A stretch of DNA of 64,000 bases, from assembly GCA_025355855.1 (NCBI GenBank), contig JANXYU010000003.1:88713-152712 (forward strand), read 5' to 3'. Position numbers and translations under genes: made by a program. This DNA comes from Actinomycetota bacterium (GTDB taxonomy: Bacteria; Actinomycetota; JAHEXW01). The notes beneath the pieces are model-generated. The model saw only the letters and a program-made list of their open reading frames with translations. It searched no databases and was not told the DNA's origin. Below are positions 27,781-59,050 of the stretch, piece by piece (position 1 is the stretch's first letter; each line of letters begins with the position of its first letter).

Positions 27781-27784
27781 GCCT

Positions 27785-28204: not shown

Positions 28205-28228
28205 GCCGCCACCTTTCGCCGTCTACTT

Positions 28229-28279
28229 ATCCTTGCGCCAATCGTGCATAGCACTTGCCACGTCTTGCGCCAATCGTGT
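28229..28279. promoter_or_regulatory. two direct copies of CTTGCGCCAATCGTG, 36 bp apart, upstream of nikR; candidate operator or promoter element
   Basis: Read directly at 28229..28243 and 28265..28279. Confidence 0.3.
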
Positions 28280-28397
28280 TACCGAATGGAATTATCGTAG
28301 CACGCCATTAACTCGGGGGCAAGACACGCTTTGGCACGTTAACGCGCTGAAGTTCGACCCGGATGCAGTGCTTCAATGTTTTAAGCAGTAACGTGTT

Positions 28398-28520
28398 TGC
28401 TTTAGCGCTTTAAAGCACTACAGCGCTCCAGCGTAGGGATTCGATTACTTCAGCGCTACGTAGCGGTGAAGCGTCCAACGTGACGGTTCGATTACTTCAG
28501 CGCTACGTAGCGGTGAAGTA
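28398..28520. repeat. palindromic repeat cluster: GCTTTAGCGCTTTAAAGCACTACAGCGCT followed by two tandem ~47-bp units, each containing the near-palindrome CTTCAGCGCTACGTAGCGGTGAAG
   Basis: Read directly; 24-mers at 28448..28471 and 28495..28518; lies between the cooC/acsF-like gene and nikR. Confidence 0.8.
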
Positions 28521-28548
28521 ATCGATAAGTATTTAGAGAGAGGTCATT

Positions 28549-29319
28549 CTAGACTTTTAAGGCTTGGGCGAGCTGTTTGATTGATTCGAGGGTGGCGGGG
28601 GAGGCGGCGGCAAAGGCCGAGGTGCCGTCCAGGTCGCTGCGGCGCAGGCCCGGGTCATAACCGACAAAGCCAATCAACCGGTCGGCCGGGACGCCGGCGC
28701 GGACGGCGTCTTCTTCTTCTGGGGTGCCGACTTTGTTGCCGACGAAGACTATCTTCTTTATCCCGAGGTCATTGGCCAGCTTATCGATGCGGGCGGCCAG
28801 CTGCAGACTCTTCTGCCCCGGTTCGACCACGACCAGTAACGCGTCCATGCCGCCTGTCGTGCCGCGCCCGAGATGCTCGAGGCCAGCTTCCATGTCCAGG
28901 ATAACGGTCTCGTCGCGCTCGACGATAAGATGATGCATTAGGTTTTTTAGGAGAGTGTTCTCGGGACAGGCGCAACCGGCGCCGCCCGCTTTGATCGTGC
29001 CGACCAATAATAATCGGACGCCATTATACTCGCCCCAATATTTTTCCGGGATATCGTCGACCTTGGGATTGTACTTGAAGAGTCCGGTGGGAACGCTTGG
29101 GTTGGTTGCGGTCCGCTCGTTAATCAGTTCCTGCTGCTCGGCAATCGGGACGATGCGGTCTAGAATCTCGGACGGGAAGCCTAGCCCCAGCCCCAGGTTC
29201 TGGGCCGGATCGGCGTCAACCGCAAGCACGGTCTTCCCCTCTCGCGCCACGTAAGCCGCCAATAACGATGACAACGTCGTCTTGCCGACGCCGCCTTTGC
29301 CCGAAACCCCGATCTTCAT
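28549..29319 (-). CDS. CooC/AcsF-type Ni-insertion ATPase (MinD/ParA family)
   Basis: MKIGVSGKGGVGKTTLSSLLAAY deviant Walker A; CxC motif GCACPENT typical of CooC. Confidence 0.8.
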   Translation of the reverse strand: MKIGVSGKGGVGKTTLSSLLAAYVAREGKTVLAVDADPAQNLGLGLGFPSEILDRIVPIAEQQELINERTATNPSVPTGLFKYNPKVDDIPEKYWGEYNGVRLLLVGTIKAGGAGCACPENTLLKNLMHHLIVERDETVILDMEAGLEHLGRGTTGGMDALLVVVEPGQKSLQLAARIDKLANDLGIKKIVFVGNKVGTPEEEDAVRAGVPADRLIGFVGYDPGLRRSDLDGTSAFAAASPATLESIKQLAQALKV

Positions 29320-29333
29320 AATCTAGTTAGCGC

Positions 29334-29657
29334 CTACAGCCACTCAGCTAACTCGGCAACGAGTTTCTTCTTCGGCATCGCGCCGACAATCTTCTTCTTT
29401 TGCTCGCCGCCCTGAAAAACGATCATGGTTGGAATGCCCATAATGCCGAAGCCCGGCGGTGTCTTCTGATTTTCGTCCACGTTGAGCTTGGCTATCTTGA
29501 TCTTGTCGCCGTACTCATCGGCCAGCTCTTCAAGGATCGGTCCGATCATTCGGCACGGGCCGCACCACTCGGCCCAGAAGTCGACCAGGACCGGCTTGTC
29601 GCTCTCGAGAACTTCGGTTTGAAAGGAATCGTCGGTTACGTGGATGATATCGGCCAT
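29334..29657 (-). CDS. trxA: thioredoxin
   Basis: WAEWCGPCRM active site; 107 aa. Confidence 0.92.
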   Translation of the reverse strand: MADIIHVTDDSFQTEVLESDKPVLVDFWAEWCGPCRMIGPILEELADEYGDKIKIAKLNVDENQKTPPGFGIMGIPTMIVFQGGEQKKKIVGAMPKKKLVAELAEWL

Positions 29658-40843: not shown

Positions 40844-43564
40844 TCACTTTTGCGATATCTTCGCGGCTGCGACCTTTAGCTCCGGGATCTTCGCTACCGG
40901 ATCTAACGCCGGATTCGTGACCGCATTGGCCGCCGCCTCCGCGTAGTGGAACGGCATATATATAACCCCAACCGGCACATCCTCCGTTAGCCGCGCCTTC
41001 GCCGTCACGCTGCCGCGCCTCGTCGTAACCGTCACCGACCGCTTGTTCTTCACCCCGTACTTCTTCGCGTCAGCCGGATTGATGTCGACCCTGGCCTCCG
41101 GTTCGATCTCGTTTAAGCCGTCGACCTTCCTGGTCATCGTGCCTGTGTGCCATTGAGCCAGGTAGCGACCGGTGGTCAAGATTAGCGGATACTTGGCGTC
41201 TGTGACTTCCGCAGGCGGTTTGTAATCGATGGCGTGGAATTTGCCTTTGCCGCGGGCGAACGTTTCCGTGTGCAGGATTGGCGTGCCCGGATGGCCGGGC
41301 GTCGGGCAGGGCCAGTGAATGCCGCAAACTTCGATCCGATGATGGCTGATGCCGCCGTACGCGGGTGTGACCGCCGCGATCTCTTCGAAGATGGCAGCCG
41401 ATGAATGGTAGTTCATTTTGTAACCGAACTTGGACGACACCAGACCGATGATCTTCCAATCGCTCAAAGCCTCGCCAGGCGGTTGGATGGCCTTACGGAC
41501 CGGTTGGACGCGCCGTTCGGTGCTGGTGAACGTACCGGACTTCTCCGCGAAGGTCGCGGCCGGCAGGACGACGTCGGCCAGCCGCGCCGTTTCTGTCAAG
41601 AAGATATCCTGGACGACCAGGAAGTCTAGGCCTTTCAGACCGGCGATAATGTGGGCCTGGTCCGGCTCGGACAAAATGGGGTTCTCGCCCATGATGTACA
41701 TGGCGCGAATGCCGCCCTTGGCCGCCGGTGTGCCGGCCGCTCTAGTCATCTCCGTGGCCGTTAACCCGGGTTTTTTCGGCAACTTCCGGCCCCAGGCCGC
41801 CTCAAATGATTTTCGAACACCGACATCGGCGACACTTTGGTAGCCCGGGTAAACGTTCGGCAGGGCTCCCATATCGCAGGCGCCCTGGACGTTGTTCTGG
41901 CCGCGCAGGGGGTTGACGCCCATACCAGGTTGGCCGATGTTCCCGGTCATCATCGCCAGGTTGGCTAGAGTCATGACGTTGTCCACGCCGGTCGTGTGCT
42001 GAGTGATGCCCATGGCGTAGATGATGGTCGCTTTGTCCGCGCCAGCGTAGATCTCCGCCGCGCGAACGATGTCGGCCGCCGGAATGCCGGTGATTGATTC
42101 AACGTAGTCGGGCGTGTATTTTTCGACCATGGCCACGACGGCCGCGAAGCCCTCCGTCCTCTCTTTGATAAACGATTTATCGGCCAGGCCGATATCCAAA
42201 ATGACGTGCATTAAACCATTGATGAGCGCGACGTCGGTGCCCGGTTTCTGAGACAGCCACATGTCGGCGTATTTTACCAACGGGATCCGGCGCGGTTCCG
42301 CCACAATCAAACGGGCGTCTTTGTTCTTTACAGAGTCGATGATGTTCAAGCCCAGAATGGGGTGGGCCTCGGTCGTGTTCGAGCCAATGACCAGAATGAC
42401 GTCAGCCTCCCCGATGTCCTCCAGGGAATTCGTCATCGCCCCGCTGCCAAACGCCGCGGCCAGACCGGCCACCGTTGGGCTGTGTCACAATCGAGCGCAG
42501 TTGTCGATGTTGTTCGTACCGACCCCCGCGCGGGCAAACTTTTGCATCAGGTAATTCTCTTCGTTGGTACATTTGCTGGAGGAAAGGAAGCCGATGGCGT
42601 CGGCCCCGTATTCCTGTTTGGTTCTCTTCAGTCCGGCGGCGACGGCCGCGATGGCTTCGTTCCACGACGCCGGCACCAGCTCCCCGTCCTTGCGTATTAA
42701 TGGGGTGATCAGACGGTCCGGGCTGTTCACGAAACCGTAGCCGAAGCGGCCTTTCACGCACAGGTCGCCCTTGTTGACCGGAGAATCCTCCCGCGAGGTG
42801 ACGCGCACGATGTGCTGGCCGTCGGTTTCCAAGACTATGGCACAGCCAACGCCGCAATACGGACAGGTGGTGACCGTTTTCTTGAGGTCTTTGCTGCGGC
42901 CCCGGTAGCGGCTGGGCTTCTCAGTCAACGCGCCGACGGGGCAGACCGAGACACAGCGCCCGCATTGGACGCATTCGGTTTCCGGTAGGGGACGGTTAAG
43001 GGCGGACGTGACCATCGTGTCAAAGCCGCGTCCCATGTAGTCGATGACCTCGCAGAACTGGAGCTCCTGACACGCCTGAGCGCAGCGGTAACATTTCACG
43101 CATTTTTCGAAATCCCGGACAATGAACGGGTTGGCGGTATCGATGGGATAACGGTTGCGCCGCCCCCGGAAACGGGAATCGGCGACCTGATATTCATAAG
43201 CCAGGTCCTGCAGTTTACAATGTCCGCTCTGTTCGCACGTCAGACAATCGCCGGGGTGATCGGAGAGCAACAGCTCCAGCACCAGTCGGCGGGCGGCCAC
43301 GGCGCGGTCGGTATGGGTCAGCACCCGCATGCCCGATTCGGCGGGACGGGCACAAGCCGCGATCAATGGACGGCCCGGACCCTCGCCCTCCAGCTCGACG
43401 ACGCAAAGACGGCACGCGCCGGTCGGCGTGAGATGCCGGTGGTTGCACAGATGAGGAATATCGACCTTGGCCTTATGGGCGGCTTCCATGATGGACGCGC
43501 CGCGATGAATCTTTACGGGCACGTCGTTAATGAACAGGGAAACTGTATCGGACTTTCTAGCCAC
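40844..43564 (-). CDS. fdhA: selenocysteine-containing formate dehydrogenase catalytic subunit (FdhF/FdhA-like; N-terminal 2Fe-2S/4Fe-4S ferredoxin modules + Mo/W-bis-PGD domain), in-frame UGA at 42487..42485
   Basis: Two track ORFs (42485..43738 and 40844..42472) are in the same frame, separated by TGA + HSPT. The joined sequence ...[30 protein letters not shown] matches the E. coli FdhF Sec140 context NCARV-U-HGPSVAGL. The likely start is GTG 43564 with a GGGAGG RBS, overlapping the NuoF-like stop by 8 nt. Confidence 0.85.
42445..42487 (-). promoter_or_regulatory. bacterial SECIS element directly 3' of the fdhA UGA
   Basis: mRNA UGA CAC AGC CCA ACG GUG GCC GGU CUG GCC GCG; the GCC-GGUCU-GGC hairpin with GGUC apical loop is at the same register as the E. 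coli fdhF SECIS (UGA CAC GGC CCA UCG GUU GCA GGU CUG CAC). Confidence 0.65.
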
Positions 43565-45287
43565 GGTTGGCCTCCCGATTCGCGGGCCGCCGCTTGCAAA
43601 TGCCATGCGGGCATTTCTTGTGTTCGATATGGGCGACGTATTCATCGCGGAAATATCGGATGGTGGACAAGACCGGGTTGGGCGCGTTTTGGCCCAGGCC
43701 GCAGAGAGACGTGTCGCGCACCACGGCCGCCGTCTCAATCAACAGGTCGATGTCTTCAATTTTCCCGTTGCCGCCGGCGATGCGTTCCAAAATCTCCAGC
43801 ATGCGGGTAGTGCCGACGCGGCAGGGGGTGCATTTGCCGCACGATTCGGCCGCCGAAAACGCCAGAAAATAGCGGGCGATATCGACCATACAGGCGGTTT
43901 CGTCGAGAACGATGACGCCGCCGCTGCCCATGATGGCCCCGACTTTGCTCAAGGTGTCGTAGGTCACGGACAGATCCAGAAATTCGGCCGGGATACAGCC
44001 GCCGGACGGGCCGCCCATCTGAACCGCTTTGAATTCCTTACCGTCGATGATGCCGCCACCCAGGTCGAAGATGAGCTCACGCAGGGTGATGCCCATCGGG
44101 ACCTCGACCAGTCCGGTGTTGTTCAGCTTACCAGCCAGGCTGAAGACCTTTGTGCCGCGCGAGGTACCGGAGCCCATGTCGTTGTAGACATCGGCGCCGC
44201 GGCCGATGATAACAGGCACGTTGGCCAGGGTCTCAACGTTATTGATGCAGGTTGGTTGGCCCCAAAGTCCGGCTACCGCCGGATAGGGCGGGCGGGGGCG
44301 GGGTGTGCCGCGTTTGCCCTCCAAACTGGCGATCAGCGCGGTTTCTTCCCCGCAGACGAACGCGCCGGCGCCTTCCTTGACCGTAATGTCGAAGTCGAAG
44401 CCGGAGCCCAAAATGTTCTGGCCGAGCAGGCCATATTTTCGCGCCTGGTCGATGGCCAGGGTGAGATGCTCGACGGCGATGGGATATTCCGCGCGCACAT
44501 AGATGTAGCCTTCGGACGCGCCGATGGCGAAGCCCGCAATGATCATGCCTTCGATGACGGCGTGCGGATCGCCCTCCATGACGCCGCGATCCATAAACGC
44601 GCCGGGGTCGCCCTCGTCGCCATTGCAGATGAGATATTTCGGTTTGGATCTTTCCTTGCGCGCCAGGCGCCACTTCAAAAAGGTCGGGAAACCGGCGCCG
44701 CCGCGGCCGCGCAGGCCGGACGCCTCCAGTTCGTTTATGATGCCGTTGGGGGTCAACCTTATCAGGGCGCGCGCCGCCGCCGCGTAGCCGCCAGTCCGGA
44801 TGTAGGCGTCGAGGGAGCGCGGGTCGACGCGACCAAGGTTGCGCAACACGCTGCGTTCCTGCGCCTTATAGAACGGGACTTCGGCGGCTTGTGTTATCGG
44901 CTGGCCGGTGGCCGGGTCTTTGTAGGCCAGGCGGTTAATGGGTTTTTTGTTTAATATGGTCTTCTGCACTATCTCCGGAACGTCGGCCGGTTTGACCTGG
45001 CCGTAGAAGATGCTGACTGGATCGATCTCGATGACGGGCGCCTGGGCGCAGAAACCGTGGCAGCCTGTTTCAACGACTTCGATGTTCTTGCGCTCGGCCG
45101 CCGGGAGCCTGGCGATTTCTTTGGCGAGCGCCGCGGAGACCGCGTCGGCGCCTGACGCCCGGCAACCGGTCATGCAGACGCGGACCCGCGTCTTATTCGG
45201 GTCGTAAGCCGTCTGCAAACGGTTACGCAAAGCGTTGAGGTCAGTCCGCGTATTTAGTTTTTGCGTGTTCGGTACGTTCTTTGGCAC
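43557..45287 (-). CDS. NuoF/HydB-like NAD(P)H-binding flavoprotein subunit with N-terminal thioredoxin-like [2Fe-2S] and C-terminal 2x[4Fe-4S] (formate dehydrogenase beta / HylB-like)
   Basis: GRGGAGFPT, FMN/NADH motifs, C-terminal CGKCTPCR...CGLGQ; GTG start with AGGAGC RBS. Confidence 0.85.
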   Translation of the reverse strand: MPKNVPNTQKLNTRTDLNALRNRLQTAYDPNKTRVRVCMTGCRASGADAVSAALAKEIARLPAAERKNIEVVETGCHGFCAQAPVIEIDPVSIFYGQVKPADVPEIVQKTILNKKPINRLAYKDPATGQPITQAAEVPFYKAQERSVLRNLGRVDPRSLDAYIRTGGYAAAARALIRLTPNGIINELEASGLRGRGGAGFPTFLKWRLARKERSKPKYLICNGDEGDPGAFMDRGVMEGDPHAVIEGMIIAGFAIGASEGYIYVRAEYPIAVEHLTLAIDQARKYGLLGQNILGSGFDFDITVKEGAGAFVCGEETALIASLEGKRGTPRPRPPYPAVAGLWGQPTCINNVETLANVPVIIGRGADVYNDMGSGTSRGTKVFSLAGKLNNTGLVEVPMGITLRELIFDLGGGIIDGKEFKAVQMGGPSGGCIPAEFLDLSVTYDTLSKVGAIMGSGGVIVLDETACMVDIARYFLAFSAAESCGKCTPCRVGTTRMLEILERIAGGNGKIEDIDLLIETAAVVRDTSLCGLGQNAPNPVLSTIRYFRDEYVAHIEHKKCPHGICKRRPANREANRG

Positions 45288-45550
45288 CTAGCTCCTAAAG
45301 TGTGTCTCCCGATAAGAAAGACTATATCTGGCGGGTCCACCCCCACCTTTCATCCTCCCCCTTCCCGTAGGGGGAGGAAAAAACTAAACCAAAGCTCTAA
45401 AACTGTCCACCTCCTAGGAGGAGGAAATAAATATATGTACTTCCCGTTAGGGAATCGATTGCACTTCTTCTAGCGTCCCCCAAGGAGAGGCAAATATCTA
45501 GTCGCTCGTCTTAAATAATTCGACGCGCGGGTGAATCGAATACACTGTCC

Positions 45551-45644
45551 GGCGGGTGGCGCGACTGGGGGGACCCCCAGATCGCGCGCAGGCCACCGAT
45601 CGGCGAGCACGATATGGGGGAAGTCTGTCGCGACAGGACCCGCC
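45551..45644. repeat. ~90-bp TIR-bounded structured repeat (copy A): GGCGGGTG...CTGGGGGGACCCCCAG...GACAGGACCCGCC
   Basis: Read directly; aligns with copy B (46920..47010) and partial copy C (50677..50715); inside the 400-bp nuoE/nuoF spacer. Confidence 0.7.
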
Positions 45645-45690
45645 GGATTTCACTCCCGCACCTGCTCGTCACTCTTTAAGAACGCGAGCG

Positions 45691-46113
45691 TCACTTGCTC
45701 TTTCTGTACTTATCCAGCACTTCCACAGCCTTCTCCGCCGTTAGCTTCCCGTAATACTCGCCGTCCACCGTCATGACCGGGGCCAGGAAACAAGAGCCAA
45801 GGCAGGCGACGGTGTCGAGCGTGAATAGTCGGTCGGGCGTGGTCTCGCCGGGTTCGATGCCCAGCTCCGTTCGCAACCGCTTCAGCACGTCGGTACCGCC
45901 TTTGACGTGGCAAGCGGTGCCGTCGCAGACGGTGACGCGGTGCTTGCCGACCGGTTTCAGCCGGAACTGGGAATAAAAGGTCGCCACCGAATAGATCTCG
46001 GAGAGCGGCACGCCCAATTCTTTGCTGACTCGCTCAATTTTGGCCGCGGGCAGGTAGCCTTCCTTGGCTTGAACCTTTTGAAGTGTGGTGATCAGCTGCC
46101 CGCGTTCGCTCAC
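45691..46113 (-). CDS. NuoE/HydC-like [2Fe-2S] thioredoxin-fold subunit
   Basis: CDGTACHVKG...CLGSC Cys pattern of the 24-kDa subunit family. Confidence 0.85.
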   Translation of the reverse strand: MSERGQLITTLQKVQAKEGYLPAAKIERVSKELGVPLSEIYSVATFYSQFRLKPVGKHRVTVCDGTACHVKGGTDVLKRLRTELGIEPGETTPDRLFTLDTVACLGSCFLAPVMTVDGEYYGKLTAEKAVEVLDKYRKSK

Positions 46114-46115
46114 AT

Positions 46116-46889
46116 CTAATCCAGGTAAGAGTCGGCGTAGAGGATATTGCCATTAAAGACGTCGACGGTTTTGACCGTGTTCATCAATTCCCTGTCGGTC
46201 GGGTCCATGATCGCCGCGTCCAGACCGAGCGCCATCAGGCTGGATAGCATCGTGCTATCCAGCAGCGTCTTGATTGGCCCGGTTAGACCGTTGGAGGTGT
46301 TGGACAGACCGACAACTGTCTTTAGCGGTGGATCGTTCAGTTGGCGAAACAGCTTGATGGCCTCAAAAACCTGGAGCGCCTGTTCCTGCGCAACCTTGAC
46401 GGGGAGAATCAGGGGGTCGAAGTAGATACGCTCGACGTCAACGCCGTAGCCCATGGCGTTGGTCATGATGTCGACAGCGATCGCGGCGCGTTCGTTGGCG
46501 TCGCGCGGGATGCCGTTCATCATAGTAAGGCCGATGATATCGGCGTCATATTTGGCCGCTAACGGCAGATAGGCTTCCATCTTCTCCGGCAGACCGTTGG
46601 TCGAGTTGATCAGCGCCGTGCCTTTGTGGACCTTGAGCCCCGCTTCGATGGCGGCTGGGTTCATCGAATCCAGGCAGCAACGAATATCCATAGCCTCTTG
46701 GATGGTCTGGACCAGCCAGGCCATGCGCTCCGGCCCGTCTTTGGCCTGACCGATGTTGATGTCCAACATATTGGCGCCGGCGTCGACCTGCGCCTGGGCC
46801 ATAGCCAGAACCGGACCCGCGTCGCGGTCCTTCATGGCCTGCCCGATCTTCGTGTTGATAACGTTTACCTTTTCACCGATTACTAACAT
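46116..46889 (-). CDS. acsE: methyl-tetrahydrofolate:corrinoid iron-sulfur protein methyltransferase (MeTr)
   Basis: Pterin-binding TIM barrel MLVIGEKVNVINTKIGQAMKDRD...MLDINIGQ; 257 aa. Confidence 0.85.
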   Translation of the reverse strand: MLVIGEKVNVINTKIGQAMKDRDAGPVLAMAQAQVDAGANMLDINIGQAKDGPERMAWLVQTIQEAMDIRCCLDSMNPAAIEAGLKVHKGTALINSTNGLPEKMEAYLPLAAKYDADIIGLTMMNGIPRDANERAAIAVDIMTNAMGYGVDVERIYFDPLILPVKVAQEQALQVFEAIKLFRQLNDPPLKTVVGLSNTSNGLTGPIKTLLDSTMLSSLMALGLDAAIMDPTDRELMNTVKTVDVFNGNILYADSYLD

Positions 46890-46919
46890 ATTATTCTCCT
46901 TTTTTTATATATAGAACAT

Positions 46920-47010
46920 GAGCGGGTGACGTCGGTGGGGGACCCCCGCAGCGCGCGCAGGCCACCAGCCAACGAGCACGTAGTAGGGGTGACCGATGGC
47001 AGGACCCGCC
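46920..47010. repeat. ~90-bp TIR-bounded structured repeat (copy B), between metF and acsE
   Basis: GAGCGGGTGACGTCGGTGGGGGACCCCCGCAGCGCGCGCAGGCCACC...GGCAGGACCCGCC; ~70% identical to copy A with a conserved GGGGGACCCCC hairpin and GCGGGT/ACCCGC termini. Confidence 0.7.
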
Positions 47011-47017
47011 TTGTCGT

Positions 47018-47950
47018 CTACCCCATAGGCCTTGGCAGAAGACCGGCGGCCTTGACGATATCCGGCACCGCTTCTTCCCATTCTATGGCCATGACGTGTA
47101 CCCCGGCGATGCCGGGAATCGTTTTCATCTTCTCTATCAGCTCGACCGCGATGGCGATGCCTTCCTCTTTGGGCTCTCGCCCCTCATCTTTGGCCGCTGT
47201 CATCCGCGCGATATATTCATCAGGCACATCCATACCGGGTACGTTGTTTTTCATATACTTGGCCATACCCGCGCTCTTCAACGGAGATATGCCGGCCATA
47301 ATGTAGACTTTTTTGTCTAAGCCCAGCGCTCGGACCTCTTCCATCCACTTCTCAAACTTCGGCACGTTGTAGACGATCTGGGTCTGAATGAATTGGGCCC
47401 CGGCCGCGACTTTCTTGGCCAAACGCCTGGCGCGCAGCTCGAATGGATCCGCGAACGGATTCTCCGCCGCGCCGATGAATAAGTCGGGTGCGACCGCCAT
47501 TTCCTGCCCGCCCAGCAATTTCTTATCATCCCGCATGGCTTTCACCATTTGCAGCAGCTGGATAGAGTCGAGGTCCCAGACGCCCTTGGCCTGGGGATGA
47601 TCGCCGAATTTCTGGTGGTCGCCGGTCAGGCAGAGGAGGTTCTTCGCGCCCAGCGCCGCCGCGCCCAGAATATCGGCCTGCATCGCCAGCCGGTTACGGT
47701 CGCGGCAGGTCATCTGGACAACCGGCTCCAAACCCTCATCTATCAGGAGCTTTGCCGCCGCGATGCTGGACATCCGCACGATAGCGGTCTGGTTATCGGT
47801 GATATTGACCGCGTCGGATTGGCCTTTTAATAATTTGGCTTTCTCGATGACAACCGAGGCGTCGGCGTCCCGGGGCGGACCCAGCTCTGACGTCACGGCA
47901 AATTTGCCTGATTCTAAGACCCTTTGTAAATTACTCAAGGTAAACCTCAC
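47018..47950 (-). CDS. metF: 5,10-methylenetetrahydrofolate reductase
   Basis: MRFTLSNLQRVLESGKFAVTSELGPP...; 310 aa MTHFR TIM barrel. Confidence 0.85.
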   Translation of the reverse strand: MRFTLSNLQRVLESGKFAVTSELGPPRDADASVVIEKAKLLKGQSDAVNITDNQTAIVRMSSIAAAKLLIDEGLEPVVQMTCRDRNRLAMQADILGAAALGAKNLLCLTGDHQKFGDHPQAKGVWDLDSIQLLQMVKAMRDDKKLLGGQEMAVAPDLFIGAAENPFADPFELRARRLAKKVAAGAQFIQTQIVYNVPKFEKWMEEVRALGLDKKVYIMAGISPLKSAGMAKYMKNNVPGMDVPDEYIARMTAAKDEGREPKEEGIAIAVELIEKMKTIPGIAGVHVMAIEWEEAVPDIVKAAGLLPRPMG

Positions 47951-48072
47951 TTTTTCGTTAGCCGCTAGAACTTTGTAGCTGCCAGTCTTTATGACCGGCA
48001 GTCGAGCGCCGACCTAAAGGACGGCGCCTACCCGTTGTCGCGGAGGATTCACCGTATAATTTCTACTCTTTA

Positions 48073-48735
48073 CTATTTACTTTCTAGCCTTCTGGGTCCG
48101 CCGTGCCAAGATGGACGCCAGTCGCGCGCCGTTGTGACCTCGTCCCATGTCGCACCCAATTTAAGTTCGTTCAGTTTGTCGAAGATCAGTTGCCAGCCGC
48201 AACCGATGTCCGGCGAGACCTCGCATTTGCCGTTGACCGACCCGCCGCAGGGGCCGTTCAACATCGACTTGGAGCAGCGGACAATGGGGCAGATACCGCC
48301 GGTCTCTCCCAGAATGCAATCGCCGCAGGCGCCGCAATATTCGATGAACAGCCGGTCGGGTGAGTGGCTCCCGAGCATCATCGTGTTGACGCCGGGCAGA
48401 ACCCGTTTGCCCGGAAACTCGGCCGCTAGGGTCTGGACCCCGACCCCGCACGACAGAGAGAGCACGGCATCCGCCGCCTTGACCGCGTCGGCCATCTCTC
48501 GCGTATACTCCGGCTCGCATTGACGCAGCGGCGTGAGCTGGGTAATTTCTAGAGTCCAGCCGTCTGATGTGGCTTTCAGTTCCAAGGCCGCCGTCAGTTC
48601 GGCGACTTCCTTCTCGCCACCGGCGAAGGAGATGGTGACACAGGTGCCGCAGCCGCCGAGCAATAATTTCTTGACGTCATTGGCGACGATCATGGCATAT
48701 ATTTCGTCTATCGGTTTGCGTTGTCCGACGATCAT
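48073..48735 (-). CDS. metV: MetV (Cys-rich MTHFR-associated small subunit)
   Basis: 220 aa with clustered Cys (CGTC, CGVGV, CGACGDCILGETGGICPIVRC...CGGSVNGKC); directly upstream of metF in the direction of transcription. Confidence 0.7.
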   Translation of the reverse strand: MIVGQRKPIDEIYAMIVANDVKKLLLGGCGTCVTISFAGGEKEVAELTAALELKATSDGWTLEITQLTPLRQCEPEYTREMADAVKAADAVLSLSCGVGVQTLAAEFPGKRVLPGVNTMMLGSHSPDRLFIEYCGACGDCILGETGGICPIVRCSKSMLNGPCGGSVNGKCEVSPDIGCGWQLIFDKLNELKLGATWDEVTTARDWRPSWHGGPRRLESK

Positions 48736-48742
48736 TTGCGCT

Positions 48743-50665
48743 TCACTCCTTGATGGCGATCATGGCCGGTTCGAGACCCAGTTCGGTAAGTGTGGCTTGG
48801 ACGGATGCGACGCGGGCGATCGTCCGGTCGCGGGCAGTGCCGAAGAAACAACCTTCCTCGGGACACAGCGACACGTTCACCTTAGCCGCGCCGGCCCGCA
48901 GTGCTTCCAGCATCAATAGTTCGCTGACCTGACCGATACACATCGCGGGGACAATCGTGTGACCTTGCGGGAGCTCGTCAGCATCGTTATAAAGACGGTT
49001 CATGCAGTAGAAATCGACCTGTTTCGCGGCCGCCGCGGCGGCAACGGCCTCGTCAAGCAGACGTTCCTCTTGACCGCGCCGGAGTGTAATGGCGCCGGCC
49101 GGACATTCGGTGGCGCACAGACCGCACGCCTGGCATTCCGCTGTATCAATGACAGCGACATTGTCGGCGCCGATCTTCGGAATCTCAAAAGGACAGACGC
49201 GCACGCACGTTAAACAGGCAATACATTTTTCCGGGTCAACTACCGCGCCGGACAGGCAAGCCATGCAGCGCAAACCCTCACGCGCCGCCTCGACCTCTGT
49301 TAAACCCGGCTCGAACAGCTCGAAGTCCCGGACGCGATCGGCGGACGGGCGCGTCATGCCGGTGCGGCGCTGGCGGGCCGGCACGAGCGGACGCATCCGC
49401 TCGGGCAAGTCGGCTAACACGGCCGGCTCGTAAACGGCAGCCGGTTTGCCGGTTAGAAACGCGGCGACGGCCGCGGCGACAACATGGCCGTTCTGTACCG
49501 CACCGATGGCGCTCCCTGGCCCGGTCGCGAACTCCCCTGCCATGAAGACATCCCGCGGTTGTTCTTTCGTTATGTCAACTTCAGCGCTACGTAGCGCTGA
49601 AGTGTCCCGGCCTTGGCCGATAGAGACAATAACGGTCTCACCGGCTACTGTCAAGAATTTGTCGGGGACGAATTGCGGGTCGAAACGGCCTTCTTCGTTG
49701 AATACGCGTGACACGGCCTGACAGGTAAGACCCTCGACCGAGGCGCCGGAGCTGACTAGTTTTGATGGACCGAGGCAGCAGTTCAGGTTGACACCTTCGG
49801 CGGCCGCCTCTTCGATCTCCCAATCATGCGCTGGCATTTTATCGCGCGACTCCAGGCAAACCAGGTTTACCTCCTTGGCGCCCAACCGGACAGCGGTCCG
49901 GGCAACGTCAATGGCAACGTTGCCGCCGCCGACCACGATGACCCTACTTTTGAGCGCCGGCGGATTCCCCGCCTTGACGGCTTTCAAAAACGGGATCGCG
50001 GTGTAGACGTTATCGCCTTCTGTCGGGAAAACGGGCAGGCTGCGGGAAAAAGGCAAGCCGGTCGCGATAATGACTCCGTCATTATCGGCTCTTAATTCGT
50101 CGATACTAAAATCTTTGCCAAGCTCTTGACCATATTTGATTTTAACCCCGGTCGCAGCGACTTCATTGATATCACAGTCAAGTGCCGTGTCTGGGAGGCG
50201 ATAGTTTGGGATGGTAAGGCGAAGCATACCGCCGGCTTTGGGCTCGCGTTCGAAAACGGTGACCTTGTGGCCGGCCGCGACCAGGTCTTGGGCGGCGGTA
50301 AGGCCCGCGGGCCCGGCCCCGATGATCGCGATACGTTTGGCCTCTCCACCCAGATTCCTTCTTTGCATGTGGAACTGTCCGTTCGACGCTGACTCAGGAT
50401 CTGGCCCGCAGGCTTCGCCGAATGCCGCTGCGGCTCGTTTAAGTTCCATGATGGAGATCGGCTGGTCGACTGAGGCGCGGCGGCAGTTCTGCTCGCACGG
50501 GCGGAAGCAGATATAGCCGCAGCTATTGGAGAATGGATTGGTCAGGCGCGCGACGTCGTAGGCTTCGGTGAAACGGCCGAGCGCCGTCAGGGCCACGTAG
50601 CCCTGAACGTCGGTAAATGCCGGACAAGCCGCCTGACACGGCGGCACAAAATCACGCATAAACAC
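48743..50665 (-). CDS. GltD/NfnB-like FAD-NAD(P) flavoprotein fused to a 2x[4Fe-4S] ferredoxin and an MvhD/FlpD-like domain (MetFV-associated electron-transfer subunit)
   Basis: N-terminal FVPPCQAACPAFTDVQGY...CGYICFRPCEQNC, Rossmann motifs IAIIGAGPAGL and VIVVGGGNVAID, then CIACLTCVRVCPF/CQACGLCATECP and a Cys-rich tail. Confidence 0.6.
   Translation of the reverse strand: MFMRDFVPPCQAACPAFTDVQGYVALTALGRFTEAYDVARLTNPFSNSCGYICFRPCEQNCRRASVDQPISIMELKRAAAAFGEACGPDPESASNGQFHMQRRNLGGEAKRIAIIGAGPAGLTAAQDLVAAGHKVTVFEREPKAGGMLRLTIPNYRLPDTALDCDINEVAATGVKIKYGQELGKDFSIDELRADNDGVIIATGLPFSRSLPVFPTEGDNVYTAIPFLKAVKAGNPPALKSRVIVVGGGNVAIDVARTAVRLGAKEVNLVCLESRDKMPAHDWEIEEAAAEGVNLNCCLGPSKLVSSGASVEGLTCQAVSRVFNEEGRFDPQFVPDKFLTVAGETVIVSIGQGRDTSALRSAEVDITKEQPRDVFMAGEFATGPGSAIGAVQNGHVVAAAVAAFLTGKPAAVYEPAVLADLPERMRPLVPARQRRTGMTRPSADRVRDFELFEPGLTEVEAAREGLRCMACLSGAVVDPEKCIACLTCVRVCPFEIPKIGADNVAVIDTAECQACGLCATECPAGAITLRRGQEERLLDEAVAAAAAAKQVDFYCMNRLYNDADELPQGHTIVPAMCIGQVSELLMLEALRAGAAKVNVSLCPEEGCFFGTARDRTIARVASVQATLTELGLEPAMIAIKE
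49578..49601. repeat. perfect 24-bp palindrome CTTCAGCGCTACGTAGCGCTGAAG embedded in-frame in the 48743..50665 CDS (encodes TSALRSAE)
   Basis: Identical to the intergenic palindrome at 10717..10740. Confidence 0.85.
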
Positions 50666-50676
50666 TCCGTATATTT

Positions 50677-50715
50677 GCTCCCCGCTAGGGGAGTCAAGTT
50701 CATGACAGGACCCGC
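50677..50715. repeat. partial copy C of the TIR element (CTCCCCGCTAGGGGAG hairpin + GACAGGACCCGCC) in the acsC/flavoprotein intergenic spacer
   Basis: Read directly. Confidence 0.55.
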
Positions 50716-50727
50716 CAGACTATCTTC

Positions 50728-52077
50728 CTACGACGCCCAGGTTTTTAGGAACGGTGGGATGTCGGCTGCTTCGCGCGGCCCGACCTCTACATTCCAGCCT
50801 TCCAGTTCGTCTTCCAGCTCGCCGCTCATCGTGGCCAAATAGCCCGGGATGACCAGCTTGCGATGCTTAACCTGCTCTTCGATGCCGACGCCCTTGATAA
50901 ACGGGACAATCTTTTCAGGCACGAACTTGCCGGCCGCCCAGCTGGTCATGACAGACAAGCCTTCCGTGTCCATGACGCACAGCCAGGCCGGGACGCGGCT
51001 GGCCTCGACCTCGCCCGACACGATGAAATAGGTCAGGCTGAAATTGGAGGTGATAAGCACCGGCGAATCCGCCGTCGGGTTGCCGATCGGGTATATGCCC
51101 GGCTTAACCTGCATCGGCCGCTGGGGATCGGTGTAAATATTCTGCCGCAGCACGTACAGCGGCAGGGCGCGCGCGGCGTCCAAATCGCTCAGCATGATAA
51201 CGCTACCGTACTTGCCGACATAAAGTCCGGCGTAGACGGCTTCCATCATTTTGTCGTCCGTTTCCTCATTCGGGAAGACAATAATCGGGAAACCGAGTTC
51301 TTTGACCTTTTTGTTCAGCGCAGCGCGGCGGATGTAGACCAGCCGTTCTAGAGTATCCTTGGGGTTACGCGTACCGGGATCCAGAACAATGTCCTTAACG
51401 CCGGCGGCCATGATCTTTTTGACCAGGTCGACCAACGCGTCCAAGTCGCCGGTGCCGCAAACAGCGAGCGGCGCCTTGTGGGCCAGTGCGAGGGCCGCCA
51501 TCGCTTCGTAGTTAGCCGCGGTCGCCGCGTAAATCAGCGGCGCGGTCTCGCCAGCCGCCTTCAGGCCCGCTTCCATTTCCGCTGGGTCGCCGCACATTAA
51601 GACCATAGGCTGCGTTGTCGCCGCTTTGACTTTTTCAATTAGCGCGACAAATTTCGCGGTGTCGCCGGATAAAGATTTCACGCCGACCAAGCCGGCTTTC
51701 AAGTCTTGTTCGACCCGGACGAACCGGCTTTCGTTAGTCTGTTTGAGCAGCCCGTCGACGGTCGCCGCGTCCATGCCGTCATCGATGACAGCCGCGAAGA
51801 CGCACGGGTTGAAGAATGTCTTCTCGTGACGGTAGAGCACCAGCTCCCCGCCGACCTTGACCGCGTCATCGCCCACGCCGATGGTGACGGCGCGAATCGG
51901 CGGCGCGGACGCCTCGCTCAAAGCCGAGGCCGCGTCCTCCGACAAATGCGGACAACCAGCCAGTTCCGCTTGGCCGGCCGCGATCTTCATCGCGAAAGCC
52001 AGGCAGGTCGGTACGCCGCAGTCCCCGCAGTTGGTCTTGGGCAGTTGTTTGAAAATATCTATTCCGGTTAAAGCCAT
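50728..52077 (-). CDS. acsC: corrinoid iron-sulfur protein large subunit (CFeSP gamma)
   Basis: MALTGIDIFKQLPKTNCGDCGVPTCLAFAMKIA; 449 aa. Confidence 0.9.
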   Translation of the reverse strand: MALTGIDIFKQLPKTNCGDCGVPTCLAFAMKIAAGQAELAGCPHLSEDAASALSEASAPPIRAVTIGVGDDAVKVGGELVLYRHEKTFFNPCVFAAVIDDGMDAATVDGLLKQTNESRFVRVEQDLKAGLVGVKSLSGDTAKFVALIEKVKAATTQPMVLMCGDPAEMEAGLKAAGETAPLIYAATAANYEAMAALALAHKAPLAVCGTGDLDALVDLVKKIMAAGVKDIVLDPGTRNPKDTLERLVYIRRAALNKKVKELGFPIIVFPNEETDDKMMEAVYAGLYVGKYGSVIMLSDLDAARALPLYVLRQNIYTDPQRPMQVKPGIYPIGNPTADSPVLITSNFSLTYFIVSGEVEASRVPAWLCVMDTEGLSVMTSWAAGKFVPEKIVPFIKGVGIEEQVKHRKLVIPGYLATMSGELEDELEGWNVEVGPREAADIPPFLKTWAS

Positions 52078-52165
52078 TTATAAACCCCTTTCGTTAGGCA
52101 TGAGCCATGAGGCAAGAGGCATGAGTTCTTCATCCTCCGACTCGCGCCTCGTTCCTCGTGCGTTC

Positions 52166-54358
52166 TTAGCCAAGTAGTGAATCCATTTCGAGCGCCGGGT
52201 GACCGACCTTGGCCATATACTCCATGACCTCTTCTTCGGTCGTCCCGATTGTCTCATCGGCGATCATGTCGACAAAGTCCGGCAGGCCGAGCGCTTCGCT
52301 ACGCTTCTTAAGCTGGCCGGCCAATGCTTCCTTTAGTTCCTTGGGCATCCAGACGATGCGCTTGAAACCACCTTCGGCGGCGATGAATTTCCCGCTCGTA
52401 ATGTACTGCCGACCCACTCCCAAAAATCCGGGAGTCTGCGCGCCGCCGCCGACCGAGCCGGCCAGGCTGGAGAACTTCATGCCCACCGGGGTCTCGCCGG
52501 TATGCTCGCGGTTAACCACCATGACGCCGTTGGCGATGGGCAGAATGGCCACGACACACTCGAAGCAACCGCAGCTGGTCTCGGGATCCTCCATTATGGA
52601 GTAGGCGTTGACCTGCTGGACACTGTTGTTTGATTTAGCCCGCACTAGTTCGTTGACGCCGACCCACTGACCGCGGCGTTCGTCGATGGTCTCGCCCTTG
52701 ATGATCGGCTGGTTGGCGCCGGTCGGATTGATCTCGTGCGCCGCCTTCGCGTCTAACCAGTTATACGCGCCGCACAAACCCAGCCGCTCCGGCGAAATCA
52801 CGCAGACATGGTTCGGCGCGAAGCTCTGGCAGAGCGTGCAGGAATAGAAGGTGTCAACGCTCTCGTCGATTAAGCCGGCGACCCGTTCGTCACGTGCGAT
52901 AAAAGCCGCGCGCGCTTCCTCCAGGACTTCCTTCATCTTGTCAGCGTCGGTATAGAGCTTGATTTGGATCTTGTCGACGATGGCCGGGAAGTCGTCCATT
53001 AGCTTGGCCTTTAGAATCTCTCCGAAGTGCTCGATTTTGAAGCCCTTTTCATGGGCGCTTTTGCTGATGCGCATCCAGTTCATATCGCGCTGGCCCATAT
53101 GCCAGATGCCTTCGGCGCCGTTGACTAGGTGGTGCAGCTGGCGCTCCAGAACAGGCTCAAAGTCGGACTGCATCTTCCGTCCGGCGACCTCGATCAATAT
53201 ACCCAACGGGTAGGCCTTGCCCTCTTCCATCTGGTCGATCTCCGGCCCGATAACCTCGATCTTTCCATTGTCGATATCGTCCATATCGCGCATGCGCAAA
53301 TACTCAAACGCAGGCGACTTCTGTCCGCCGAACTCGACAAACATGGCTTCCTTGCGGATGCGTTCACCCTCGAAGGCGGAGCCGAACGACACCGGGATCG
53401 GGATTTTGGTGATTTTAATCTTTATGCCGCGCACCTCGACCGCCGTGTCGACGATCTTGTCCAGCGGCACATTAGACACAACGTGTTCATAGGTCGTGAT
53501 ACCGGTCGGCAGAATCTGCGGGATATCGGTGTTGGCGATGACCGGGAAGCCGAAGTTGATGGCGCCCGCGGCTGTGGCATATTTCTCATCGTCTACGTCG
53601 CCCAAGGCGATGACGAAAGCAAACACACGATTTTTGTTGTACATTAGGATCTCGCGAGCTTCCTTCATTCCGCCCGGAGTAATACCGCCGAAGGTCATAG
53701 CGGCTCGCGCGGCGACGCCCAGCGCGTATACCGCCGCCGAGATGTCCCTGCCGAACGGCACTAAATAGACGTCCCAGCCCATCTCGACGCCGGCTTCGTT
53801 TAACTGGTCGGCCATGGTTTTACCGTCCGTCTCGCCCGCCATGAACAGCAAAATGTTGCGTTCGCGCAGTTCGGTCGCTAGTTTTACAGCTTCCTCAGTG
53901 GTCGGCGCGGCGCCGACAACGGCGGCGAAACCCGGCATGGACCCGTCAACGAGCTTGATGCCTTGGGTCCGGACAATAACGTCGTCGGTCGCGCCCAGCC
54001 AGATACCTTCAACGGGGTTGGGTCCCATGACGTATTTCATGGCTTCGATGATTTCCTCGCTCAACAGCGCCGCGATACCTGAGTCCAGCGTGTTGCCCAG
54101 ATAAGGCAGCCAAGCGTCCTCAGCCGGGATGTCCGGCAACATCGATTTGGCTTTTGCCAGGACCGGCTGGATGTCACCCAACGTTTTAACCTTGATGGCC
54201 AGCAGCGCATAGGCGACCGGCAGATAATAAGCGGTGTCCGGAAAAGATACAGGTTGGTCCGCGCCTTTGGCTGCCAGCGCCGCGTTGTAGGCGGCTTCCG
54301 CTTTGTTATAGAGAGAGTGCGCCCCGCGGATAGCGGACGAGGCAATCAGTTTTGACAT
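52166..54358 (-). CDS. acsB: acetyl-CoA synthase (A-cluster subunit)
   Basis: 730 aa; SCTLCQSFAPNHVCVISPERLGLCGAYNWLD and CGCFEC Ni-Ni-FeS ligand motifs. Confidence 0.9.
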   Translation of the reverse strand: MSKLIASSAIRGAHSLYNKAEAAYNAALAAKGADQPVSFPDTAYYLPVAYALLAIKVKTLGDIQPVLAKAKSMLPDIPAEDAWLPYLGNTLDSGIAALLSEEIIEAMKYVMGPNPVEGIWLGATDDVIVRTQGIKLVDGSMPGFAAVVGAAPTTEEAVKLATELRERNILLFMAGETDGKTMADQLNEAGVEMGWDVYLVPFGRDISAAVYALGVAARAAMTFGGITPGGMKEAREILMYNKNRVFAFVIALGDVDDEKYATAAGAINFGFPVIANTDIPQILPTGITTYEHVVSNVPLDKIVDTAVEVRGIKIKITKIPIPVSFGSAFEGERIRKEAMFVEFGGQKSPAFEYLRMRDMDDIDNGKIEVIGPEIDQMEEGKAYPLGILIEVAGRKMQSDFEPVLERQLHHLVNGAEGIWHMGQRDMNWMRISKSAHEKGFKIEHFGEILKAKLMDDFPAIVDKIQIKLYTDADKMKEVLEEARAAFIARDERVAGLIDESVDTFYSCTLCQSFAPNHVCVISPERLGLCGAYNWLDAKAAHEINPTGANQPIIKGETIDERRGQWVGVNELVRAKSNNSVQQVNAYSIMEDPETSCGCFECVVAILPIANGVMVVNREHTGETPVGMKFSSLAGSVGGGAQTPGFLGVGRQYITSGKFIAAEGGFKRIVWMPKELKEALAGQLKKRSEALGLPDFVDMIADETIGTTEEEVMEYMAKVGHPALEMDSLLG

Positions 54359-54403
54359 CTAAAATCCTCCTTGGTTGGCCGCGGTCAGCGCCGCGGCGAA
54401 CTG

Positions 54404-55348
54404 TTAGTTTGTAGCGCCGGTTAGGGCGGCGACAAATTGCCGCGTCAGCTCGACCGCTTTCGGGTGCCGCATGACCAGGATGTTGGAGCCGGCCATGATC
54501 AGCGCGGTCGCCGTCAGTGCCTCCCATAAAACACCCCTGGTCTCCGCGTCGCCCCACGCGGGTTCGTCGGCTTCCGACGTTTTGACTTCTTTGGCTTTCC
54601 AAACCTCGCGACCGATCTGGTTGATCATCGGCATCTGGGTCATTGAATCATTCTGGGTCATGGCCGCCAAACGCAGCCGCTCCATGACGGAGTAGCAATA
54701 TTCCAGCCCGTAGCCCAGAGCGCCCGTCGTGGGATCGATGATGACCCGTTCGGGGGCCAGACCGAGCTGGGTGATCAGGATGTTCAGCTGTTTGGCGATA
54801 TTGACGTCGATGGGGGAATGGGGCGCCGCCAGGTGGTCGAAACCGAGCGCGGCGGCGGCCACAGTTTTGTAGTTTTCCTCCTCGACCGGACCGATCAAAG
54901 CGCGTTTGCCCTGACAAGCCTCGGCCGCCTTGGGCATCACTTCGGCGTCTTTGTCCGCGTTAGCGGTGCCGTAGACGATCAACGGAATCTTGATGGCGTC
55001 TGCCACGGCTTTCACAATCGGCGCGATGTCCGCCCCGTTGCGGTCGCCGGTCGACGGATTTGTCGAAGCCAGGTTAAGACATATCATGTCCGCCTTGTAT
55101 TCGTCCTGGCACTTCAACGCCCACTTGACTGGGTCGTCCAGGACGTCGGCGTAAGGGGCGATCGCGGCCTCCGGCCAGTCTTCCGGTTTGGTGTCGTAGA
55201 CTTCCAACGCGATGACTGGTTTGTTGGGAGCCGCGCCCTCGAACATGTACAACGGCAAAGAGGTTTCGCCGCCCACCGTTACGGCCGTGTCTCCCAGACC
55301 GATCGTCGCTTCACGTATCTTGCCGTTATATGTTTCCTTTACTTCCAT
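54404..55348 (-). CDS. acsD: corrinoid iron-sulfur protein small subunit (CFeSP delta)
   Basis: 314-aa TIM barrel partner of AcsC; MEVKETYNGKIREATIGLGD... Confidence 0.85.
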   Translation of the reverse strand: MEVKETYNGKIREATIGLGDTAVTVGGETSLPLYMFEGAAPNKPVIALEVYDTKPEDWPEAAIAPYADVLDDPVKWALKCQDEYKADMICLNLASTNPSTGDRNGADIAPIVKAVADAIKIPLIVYGTANADKDAEVMPKAAEACQGKRALIGPVEEENYKTVAAAALGFDHLAAPHSPIDVNIAKQLNILITQLGLAPERVIIDPTTGALGYGLEYCYSVMERLRLAAMTQNDSMTQMPMINQIGREVWKAKEVKTSEADEPAWGDAETRGVLWEALTATALIMAGSNILVMRHPKAVELTRQFVAALTGATN

Positions 55349-55471
55349 TAGACCCTCCCACTGCGAGCAATCAGCTCGCCTTGCGCGTTGCCTTCGTAGC
55401 TGCCGGTCTTTAGACCGGCAGTCGAGCGCCGACCTAAAGGTTGGCGCCTACATCTCTACACTCGTACGTGT

Positions 55472-56323
55472 CTAGCCCGCTGCTCTCTTTGCCGCCTCAA
55501 GAGTATTTACCATCAGCATGGCAATGGTCATGACCCCGACCCCGCCAGGCACAGGCGTGATGGCGCCGACCTTATCGAACACGCCGTCATAGTCGACGTC
55601 TCCGACAACCTTGCCTTCCTCGTTGCGGTTGATGCCGGCGTCCACGACAGCGGCGCCCGCTTTTACCATGTCTGCGGTAATCATTTTCGGCTGTCCGATG
55701 CCAACGACCAAAATGTCTGCCCTACCGGTATGAGCCGCCAGGTCCTTTGTCTTCGAGTGACAGATGGTAACGGTCGCGTTGTTCTGCAGGAGCAGGACCG
55801 CCGCCGGTTTACCGACAATGTTGCTGCGGCCAACGATAACGGCGTCCTTGCCGGCGATCTCCACGCCGCTGCGCTGCAACAGCACAATTATGCCGTGCGG
55901 TGTGCACGGCAGAAAACATTCCTTGCCGATCAACATATTGCCCACGTTGACGGGGGTAAAGCCATCGACATCCTTCTTAACCTCGATAGCGTCGATTACC
56001 TTGTCTTCATCGATGTGCTTGGGCAAAGGCAGCTGAACCAACAGACCGTGGATCTTCGGGTCGTCGTTCAATCGGTAAACCAGACTCAGCAGCTCTTCTT
56101 CTGAGACGTCCGCCGGTAATTCGTGTTTTTCCGAATAGATACCTGTCTCCGCGCAGGCCTTTTCCTTATTCCGGACATAGATGGTGCTGCCGGGATCCTC
56201 GCCGACGATGATAACGGCCAAGCCTGGCGTAATGCCGGACCCCGCCTTTAGCTGTTCAACGCCCGCGGCGACCTCGGCCTTTATTTCAGCCGAAATCTTC
56301 CTACCGTCAATTACTGTGGTCAT
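55472..56323 (-). CDS. folD: bifunctional methylene-THF dehydrogenase/methenyl-THF cyclohydrolase
   Basis: IIVGEDPGSTIYVRNKEKA, LPLPKHIDE, VVGRSNIVGKP. Confidence 0.9.
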   Translation of the reverse strand: MTTVIDGRKISAEIKAEVAAGVEQLKAGSGITPGLAVIIVGEDPGSTIYVRNKEKACAETGIYSEKHELPADVSEEELLSLVYRLNDDPKIHGLLVQLPLPKHIDEDKVIDAIEVKKDVDGFTPVNVGNMLIGKECFLPCTPHGIIVLLQRSGVEIAGKDAVIVGRSNIVGKPAAVLLLQNNATVTICHSKTKDLAAHTGRADILVVGIGQPKMITADMVKAGAAVVDAGINRNEEGKVVGDVDYDGVFDKVGAITPVPGGVGVMTIAMLMVNTLEAAKRAAG

Positions 56324-56331
56324 AAATCCTC

Positions 56332-59012: not shown

Positions 59013-59050
59013 GTGCTCTAGCGCCTCGCTTCCGACCGCTTACGGCCGGT

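Follow-up and report, generated by a model that had tools for sequence, protein, structure and literature searches.

The gene discussed here, fdhA, lies on the minus strand of a 64,000-nucleotide stretch of DNA from an uncultured actinobacterium (contig JANXYU010000003.1 of assembly GCA_025355855.1, positions 88,713 to 152,712), referred to below as the window; its reading frame contains a UGA codon that is predicted to encode selenocysteine (Sec). The gene spans 40844..43564 and comprises 906 codons, including the one Sec codon. Its start codon is a GTG at 43564, which overlaps the stop codon of the NuoF-like gene before it (GTGGCTAG); a Shine–Dalgarno sequence, GGGAGG (43571..43576, minus strand), is found 6 nt upstream. 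The predicted Sec codon specifies residue 360 (U360) and occupies 42485..42487 on the minus strand; the next base is a C, and the resulting motif is U-H-S-P. Across the site, the minus strand reads AAC TGC GCT CGA TTG TGA CAC AGC CCA ACG GTG GCC GGT CTG GCC GCG GCG TTT GGC AGC GGG GCG ATG ACG. In the list of open reading frames (ORFs), the gene appears as two same-frame entries, 42485..43738 and 40844..42472, with a single TGA (42487..42485) between them. A preliminary description of this DNA had attributed the apparent split to one TGA followed in frame by HSPTVAGL, and the coordinates and codons read here are the same.

The entire window was scanned in six frames for TGA codons with at least 50 open codons on either side. 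The fdhA pair, with 417 and 546 codons, is by far the longest TGA-split pair and the only one with homology, and this check for further selenoproteins found no other long TGA-split pair with homology in the window. The thioredoxin encoded at 29334..29657 carries WCGPC and is of the cysteine (Cys) type, and the HdrA/MvhD-like gene at 48743..50665 has no in-frame TGA and no room for an upstream extension. In public protein collections, the window fdhA is stored as two truncated proteins, P0121 and P0004; the former is the 359-residue N-terminal fragment starting from GTG 43564.

The product of the joined frame has a modular architecture. According to Pfam, an N-terminal 2Fe-2S domain (Fer2_4), NADH-G_4Fe-4S_3 and ferredoxin-like 4Fe-4S domains are followed by Molybdop_Fe4S4, Molybdopterin and Molydop_binding, with PF04879, PF00384 and PF01568 all found. 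The NCBIfam model for formate dehydrogenase subunit alpha, TIGR01591, scores 865 bits (cut-off 666). The best solved structure is 6tg9_A, which matches over the full length at 8e-232 and is named 'Formate dehydrogenase subunit alpha' in the PDB; Escherichia coli FdhH (1aa6) matches the catalytic part at 7e-169. An alignment of the window protein with the product of E. coli fdhF, taken from a RefSeq genome, gives 41.7% identity over 671 residues. U360 is aligned with the catalytic Sec140 (U140) of FdhH, and H141, R333, K44, C8, C11, C15 and C42 of the E. coli enzyme correspond to H361, R554, K271, C234, C237, C241 and C269 in the window. The two proteins share the TIGR01591 family, the conserved catalytic domain and the UGA followed by C. 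The motif U-H-S-P fits UHxP, which is listed for the FdhA selenoprotein family (PMC13188914, Table 1); the same recent review describes this family as the most widely distributed bacterial selenoprotein (PMC13188914).

The alignment upholds the earlier proposal that the peptide around the TGA matches the Sec active-site context of FdhF, with the catalytic and Fe-S residues conserved. The broader assignment, to a Sec-containing formate dehydrogenase, is supported but needs a refinement: the gene does encode a formate dehydrogenase alpha subunit with a Sec-aligned TGA, but one of the 906-residue, NuoG-fused FdhA/FdsA type, and not the 715-residue FdhF of formate-hydrogen lyase. The window protein differs from E. 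coli FdhH in a 225-residue N-terminal NuoG-like Fe-S extension and in its NuoE/NuoF-like partners, whereas the E. coli enzyme has hydrogenase-3 partners.

Since gene callers and protein databases list P0121 and P0004 separately, the locus could in principle hold two genuine genes, one for a 359-residue N-terminal Fe-S protein and one for a C-terminal molybdopterin protein starting at GTG 42472. Such a division would, however, run through the Molybdopterin domain and leave the enzyme without its catalytic Sec/Cys-His dyad; moreover, the four codons between the TGA and GTG 42472 are conserved in frame in relatives. As for a reassignment of UGA to a standard amino acid, TGA is an ordinary stop in 9 of the 45 window genes, and the codon is therefore not generally reassigned. 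Taken together, two separate genes or a reassigned UGA have a negligible probability.

In bacteria, the selenocysteine insertion sequence (SECIS) is a stem-loop within the coding region that starts about 11 nt after the UGA (PMC8659212), and U17 and G23 have been reviewed as the sites of contact with SelB (PMC8659212). The core of the corresponding element in the window (42456..42472, minus strand) was delineated from the predicted fold and from covariation. It is a 6-bp helix, GUGGCC/GGCCGC, which begins 12 nt past the UGA and in which 42472..42467 are paired with 42461..42456; the loop is GGUCU (42466..42462). The minimum-energy fold contains this helix around GGUCU, with more pairing beneath it. 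The SECIS_3 model of Rfam (RF01989) matches at 42432..42490 on the minus strand with 62.6 bits, over 59 nt and the full model length, and is the only Rfam match at E ≤ 1 on either strand of the window.

The reference point for this hairpin is the E. coli fdhF element (TGACACGGCCCATCGGTTGCAGGTCTGCACC), which is present in fdhF of 5419 of 5426 E. coli genomes and folds into a GGUC loop closed by an A-U pair, with a bulged U. GGUCUG is found at the same offset from the UGA in both, and the window loop bases G 42465 and U 42464 take up the offsets of G23 and U24. The window differs in that the register of the stem is shifted by 1 nt, the loop is GGUCU closed by C-G, and the 6 bp are continuous. 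The bulged U17 of the E. coli element is absent; its equivalent in the window is predicted to pair with G34 as a U.G wobble, and all 41 TGA-type sequences have a U.G or U-A pair at this position. In the SECIS_3 consensus alignment, the U17 position of the window has no partner and the neighbouring 19-34 pair is a G-G mismatch; 13 of the 16 model pairs are formed. The 19-34 pair, as counted in the Rfam model, was rejected: it never forms, and the 20-34/19-35 register, which gives the continuous 6 bp, fits all sequences.

This outcome qualifies the preliminary description, which had proposed a canonical fdhF-type SECIS with a GC stem, an apical loop containing GGUC and the E. coli codon register, and had suggested a fold and a comparison with a bacterial covariance model as a check. 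Both procedures recovered an element, the fold in the form of the 6-bp helix and the model with a score just short of its cut-off of 63 bits. The offset of the loop G and U was correct, as folds and comparison both indicate; the stem register, the extent of the loop and the lack of a bulged U depart from E. coli. Judged by its sequence and predicted fold, the hairpin falls into the SECIS_3 class; its 6-bp helix is uninterrupted, its loop is the 5-nt GGUCU, and it is not an exact copy of the E. coli element. Among its closest counterparts are Sec-type FdhA genes with a SECIS_3 element in anaerobes such as Moorella mulderi (L010), Desulfosporosinus (L024) and Desulfotruncus (L008). The window gene matches the model over its full length and has the same protein architecture as these; its apical 15 nt (GUGGCCGGUCUGGCC) are identical in M. 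mulderi and in several Desulfosporosinus genes. What sets the window apart from these is its host, an uncultured actinobacterium, and a score 0.4 bit under the curated cut-off.

More distant homologues show how the hairpin relates to the active-site codon. A scan of reference genomes gave at least 80 loci with 46–56% identity. Among the matches listed, the active-site motif was found in 66 genes, in which the codon is TGA (42 genes) or TGC or TGT (24 genes). Covariation was assessed in 41 distinct TGA-type 59-mers (40 homologues and the window) and in 23 distinct Cys-type 59-mers. Pair 21-33, formed by the third positions of a Val and an Ala codon, occurs in the TGA-type set as GC (23), CG (9), AU (5) and UA (4), with no mispairs, but is a standard pair in only 7 of 23 Cys-type sequences. 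Likewise, pair 24-30, formed by the third positions of an Ala and a Leu codon, is CG in 33 and AU in 8 TGA-type sequences, again with no mispairs, and standard in 12 of 23 of the Cys type. Over the six pairs of helix 19-24/30-35, 245 of 246 cells are paired in the TGA-type set, compared with 91 of 138 in the Cys-type set. The covariation score of the former is 0.286, against a shuffled mean of 0.155, and was reached by none of 500 shuffles; that of the latter, 0.144 against 0.152, was reached by 339 of 500, and there is no signal. When all genes are counted, the loop is GGTCT in 40 of the 43 that are of the Sec type, as against 3 of the 24 of the Cys type. These patterns support the view that TGA-type homologues maintain the hairpin through compensatory changes, and that Cys-type homologues do not. 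Support for the lower helix of the Rfam model is poor in this clade, in which it is 65% paired. In two of the loci, FdhA paralogues are adjacent: one TGA-type and one Cys-type in L015 (3944 and 7251), and both TGA-type in L062 (3629 and 6820).

Among close relatives, the situation is obscured by the way in which such genes are stored. A search with the joined protein returned full-length matches of the Cys type only, with up to 72% identity and all with CARLCH. The window thus appeared as a lone TGA within a Cys clade, an idea that was discarded as a ranking artefact; TGA-type genes are stored as two fragments, and a search with the C-terminal part overturned it. With this 542-residue fragment as the query, 13 of the 16 best non-self matches were fragments of 525–551 residues with up to 85% identity, which points to split gene calls; the Cys-type proteins P0001 and P0002 are nested among them. 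Storage of fdhA as two proteins, of about 359 and 525–551 residues, was seen for most of the close relatives (P0124–P0136 and many others). In the three nearest relatives, L085 (85% identity), L086 (78%) and L087 (73%), an N-terminal ORF of 358–359 residues ends in a TGA at the same codon, and the GTGGCCGGTCTGGCC core is identical. L087 is located on a contig of 968,577 bp, and has the gene order of the window across the Wood–Ljungdahl cluster and well beyond. The DnaK of the window is 84% identical to a protein on this 968-kb contig, 70% to that of Candidatus Solincola tengchongensis and 67% to that of Anoxymicrobiaceae, all of them Actinomycetota metagenome-assembled genomes (MAGs); this places the host among uncultured actinobacteria that have the Wood–Ljungdahl pathway.

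Two sister MAGs, L082 and L083, are of the Cys type; they are 69–73% identical, have the same acsE-nuoE-nuoF-fdhA order, and carry TGC in place of TGA. The loop is progressively altered in two Cys-type sisters, to GGUUU in L083 and to GGCCU in L084. Because the three nearest relatives all carry TGA, this codon is taken as ancestral; on this comparison of sequences, Sec is the ancestral state in the clade, and the Cys forms of L082 and L083 are derived and retain fossil SECIS elements. Another Cys-type gene, in L038, has a hairpin identical or nearly so to that of a TGA-type sister (L014).

This relatively coherent picture is complicated by several observations that weigh against Sec insertion in this particular gene. 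At the Rfam gathering threshold, there is no match in the window; the 62.6 bits fall 0.4 bit under the gathering score of 63, and the match is obtained only at an E-value threshold (E = 1.5e-14 locally and 3.2e-12 for the whole window). Even this E-value makes the evidence look stronger than it is: the element coincides with a strongly conserved peptide and Cys-type genes also score, so that some 30–40 bits of the SECIS_3 score come from protein conservation. The folding energy is not unusual relative to shuffled sequences (z = 0.29 for 61 nt, −0.40 for 48 nt and −1.7 for the 23-nt core). Neither selA, selB and selD nor a tRNA-Sec is found in the 64-kb window, which has no tRNA gene and in which some 57 predicted proteins were scanned. 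Finally, L082 (GCA_043820535.1, an Actinomycetota MAG), the closest full-length homologue at about 72–73% identity, has TGC followed by an identical GTGGCCGGTCTGGCC hairpin (4337-4395), so that one C-to-A change in a gene of this kind would give a picture much like that in the window.

Controls bear on the first three of these points. The energy z-scores are uninformative, because GC-rich coding sequence folds about equally well when shuffled. Eight TGA-type homologues (L002–L074) score 36.5–55.7 bits with SECIS_3, all under the gathering score. The cut-off is hence conservative for this clade. Of eight Cys-type homologues, four score 31.5–41.6 bits (L005, L037, L038, L033) and four give no match. 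The window has the highest SECIS_3 score among all sequences scored. The model thus responds to coding conservation and at the same time overlooks many genuine elements of this FdhA family, and its score needs Cys-type controls before it is counted as evidence.

The last two points, the TGC-bearing homologue with its intact hairpin and the lack of Sec machinery within the window, are those that would favour a recent nonsense mutation: a Cys-type (TGC) FdhA with a fossil hairpin would have acquired a premature stop by a C-to-A change, making it a fresh pseudogene in a host that may not decode Sec. Against this stand the TGAs of all three nearest relatives. In addition, two lower-stem pairs that are kept in the window are broken in L082, which forms 11 of the 16 model pairs compared with 13 in the window. 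The window would have had to revert exactly to the state of its nearest relatives, and yet retain the best-scoring hairpin of the set. Selection gives a further argument. Between the window and L085, the number of synonymous substitutions per site (dS) is about 0.9–1.0. The ratio of non-synonymous to synonymous rates (dN/dS) comes to 0.07 over the 359 codons upstream of the TGA and to 0.10 over the 541 codons that follow it; downstream values relative to L086, L087 and L082 are 0.05–0.13. Purifying selection downstream of the TGA is therefore strong, and the 546 downstream codons have thus long been translated in frame; a gene truncated at codon 360 would not be expected to keep them constrained across several TGA-bearing lineages. 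On all these grounds, a recent nonsense mutation is very unlikely.

Even less probable, and on a par with the two-gene reading, is an error of sequencing or assembly that conceals a TGC or TGT, although TGA and TGC are only one base apart. A Logan contig (L001), assembled independently and present in two samples, matches the window with 100% identity across 2828 bp, the TGA among them, and the same TGA is present in relatives from other samples.

With these alternatives weighed, 40844..43564 is very probably a single gene in which the UGA at codon 360 is decoded as Sec and which encodes the catalytic alpha subunit of a formate dehydrogenase, or CO2 reductase, that is cytoplasmic and depends on molybdenum or tungsten; the metal and the electron donor are predictions. 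That the organism decodes Sec is indicated by the evolutionary evidence, from which selA, selB, selC and selD would be expected in its genome. The codon is almost certainly read as Sec, and the gene is then an ordinary representative of the commonest selenoprotein in bacteria, located in a CO2-fixing cluster of an uncultured actinobacterium.

The predicted course of events at codon 360 follows from these assignments. When a ribosome is positioned at the UGA, the mRNA 12 nt downstream would fold into the 6-bp helix with its GGUCU loop. SelB, carrying GTP and Sec-tRNA(Sec), would bind the loop G and U and, competing with release factor 2, bring Sec into the A site; both SelB binding and Sec insertion at this codon are putative. 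In the finished enzyme, Sec360 is expected to ligate the Mo/W centre beside His361 and Arg554. Electrons would pass in or out through the NuoG-like Fe-S domain of FdhA and two co-transcribed subunits, one NuoF-like (FMN, NAD(P)H) and one NuoE-like. The enzyme would thereby provide the formate used by Fhs, with which the methyl branch of the Wood–Ljungdahl pathway, encoded directly upstream, begins.

The neighbouring genes are all on the minus strand, with the formate dehydrogenase at the 3′ end of a Wood–Ljungdahl cluster. Directly upstream is the gene for a NuoF/HydB-like flavoprotein subunit of 576 residues (43557..45287), a predicted electron-transfer partner of FdhA with thioredoxin-like 2Fe-2S, FMN/NADH-binding 51K and 4Fe-4S domains in Pfam. 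It is preceded by a gene for a NuoE-like 2Fe-2S subunit of 140 residues (45691..46113; Pfam 2Fe-2S_thioredx at 1e-51, as well as the NCBIfam NuoE and formate dehydrogenase gamma models). The Wood–Ljungdahl genes identified by Pfam and NCBIfam extend over 46116..60754. Going upstream from fdhA, the order is NuoF-like, NuoE-like, AcsE-like methyltransferase, MetF, MetV, GltD/HdrA/MvhD-like, AcsC, AcsB, AcsD, FolD, CooC-type ATPase, RACo and Fhs. The synteny of NuoE-like, NuoF-like and NuoG-fused alpha subunits is conserved in L082, L083 and L087.

The same order of NuoE-like, NuoF-like and NuoG-fused alpha subunits is found in the formate dehydrogenase of 6tg9, which we take to be the NAD-dependent FdsABG enzyme of Rhodobacter capsulatus, with the gene order fdsG-B-A; enzymes of this type presumably have Cys at the active site. 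The window differs in its NuoF-like subunit, which resembles the B chains of multimeric hydrogenases much more closely than the beta subunits of formate dehydrogenases. In the PDB it matches best to 7t2r_B (712 bits) and 8a6t_B (694 bits), the latter described as 'Electron bifurcating hydrogenase subunit HydB', whereas the beta subunits 6vw7_B and 6tg9_B give 453 and 391 bits. The alignment leaves out about the last 60 residues of 7t2r_B, and no Fer4 domain was found by Pfam at the C-terminus of the NuoF-like protein. It is conceivable, if rather doubtful, that FdhA, the HydB-like NuoF and NuoE together form a flavin-based electron-bifurcating CO2 reductase, which would make carbon fixation by the Wood–Ljungdahl pathway selenium-dependent in an uncultured clade of Actinomycetota.

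Existing knowledge of Sec decoding is unchanged by these results, and what they add is modest: the mis-annotation of FdhA as two proteins, the apparent and so far unremarked selenium dependence of Wood–Ljungdahl Actinomycetota, and a Sec-to-Cys series with fossil SECIS elements. Some published accounts of Wood–Ljungdahl Actinomycetota name fdh genes without mention of Sec. Because fdhA is stored as two truncated proteins, pathway reconstructions for these organisms may count formate dehydrogenase as defective, or miss a need for selenium. The clade also provides a clean natural series for the decay of SECIS elements after the change from Sec to Cys, from TGA with an intact hairpin, via TGC with an intact hairpin, to TGC with a degraded loop.

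Several other features of the region were noted. In Geosporobacter ferrireducens, a riboswitch for the molybdenum/tungsten cofactor (RF01055, 79 bits; L013:7306-7424) is located about 1.6 kb downstream of a Sec-type fdhA; the Rfam scan found none of this type in the window. Within the minus-strand operon, the NuoE-like and NuoF-like genes are separated by about 400 nt of non-coding DNA (45288..45690), whereas the same genes overlap in L082 and L087. This interval holds short GC hairpins and a motif of about 60 nt (CGTGCTCG..GGTGGCCTGCGCGCG..GGGGGTCCCCCCA..CACCCGC), which recurs once, in the same orientation, in the intergenic region between the MetF and AcsE-like genes (46920..47000). Its core pattern has two matches in the window, with none expected by chance; there is no match in Rfam and none in related loci. 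The motif may represent a regulatory site, or else a small element of a mobile or repetitive kind.

The gene at 48743..50665, between those for AcsC and MetV, encodes a protein of 640 residues that combines GltD-like Fer4_20 and pyridine-nucleotide-disulfide oxidoreductase domains, 4Fe-4S domains and an MvhD/FlpD C-terminus; it is probably an electron-transfer partner of MetFV. The cluster genes at 50728..60754 include AcsB with a CODH_A_N domain. A catalytic subunit of carbon monoxide dehydrogenase (CODH) of the CooS/AcsA type was not seen among the scanned window proteins. The window also contains (10834..13100 and 27145..29319) a possibly NfnAB-like pair, consisting of a GltD-like protein and an Fe-S/FAD protein of the dihydroorotate-dehydrogenase-B type, and, downstream of the cluster, a group of NikR, CbiM, CbiQ, an ABC-ATPase and a CooC-like protein. 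The latter group plausibly serves the nickel supply of CODH/acetyl-CoA synthase. The same arrangement is also found in L087.

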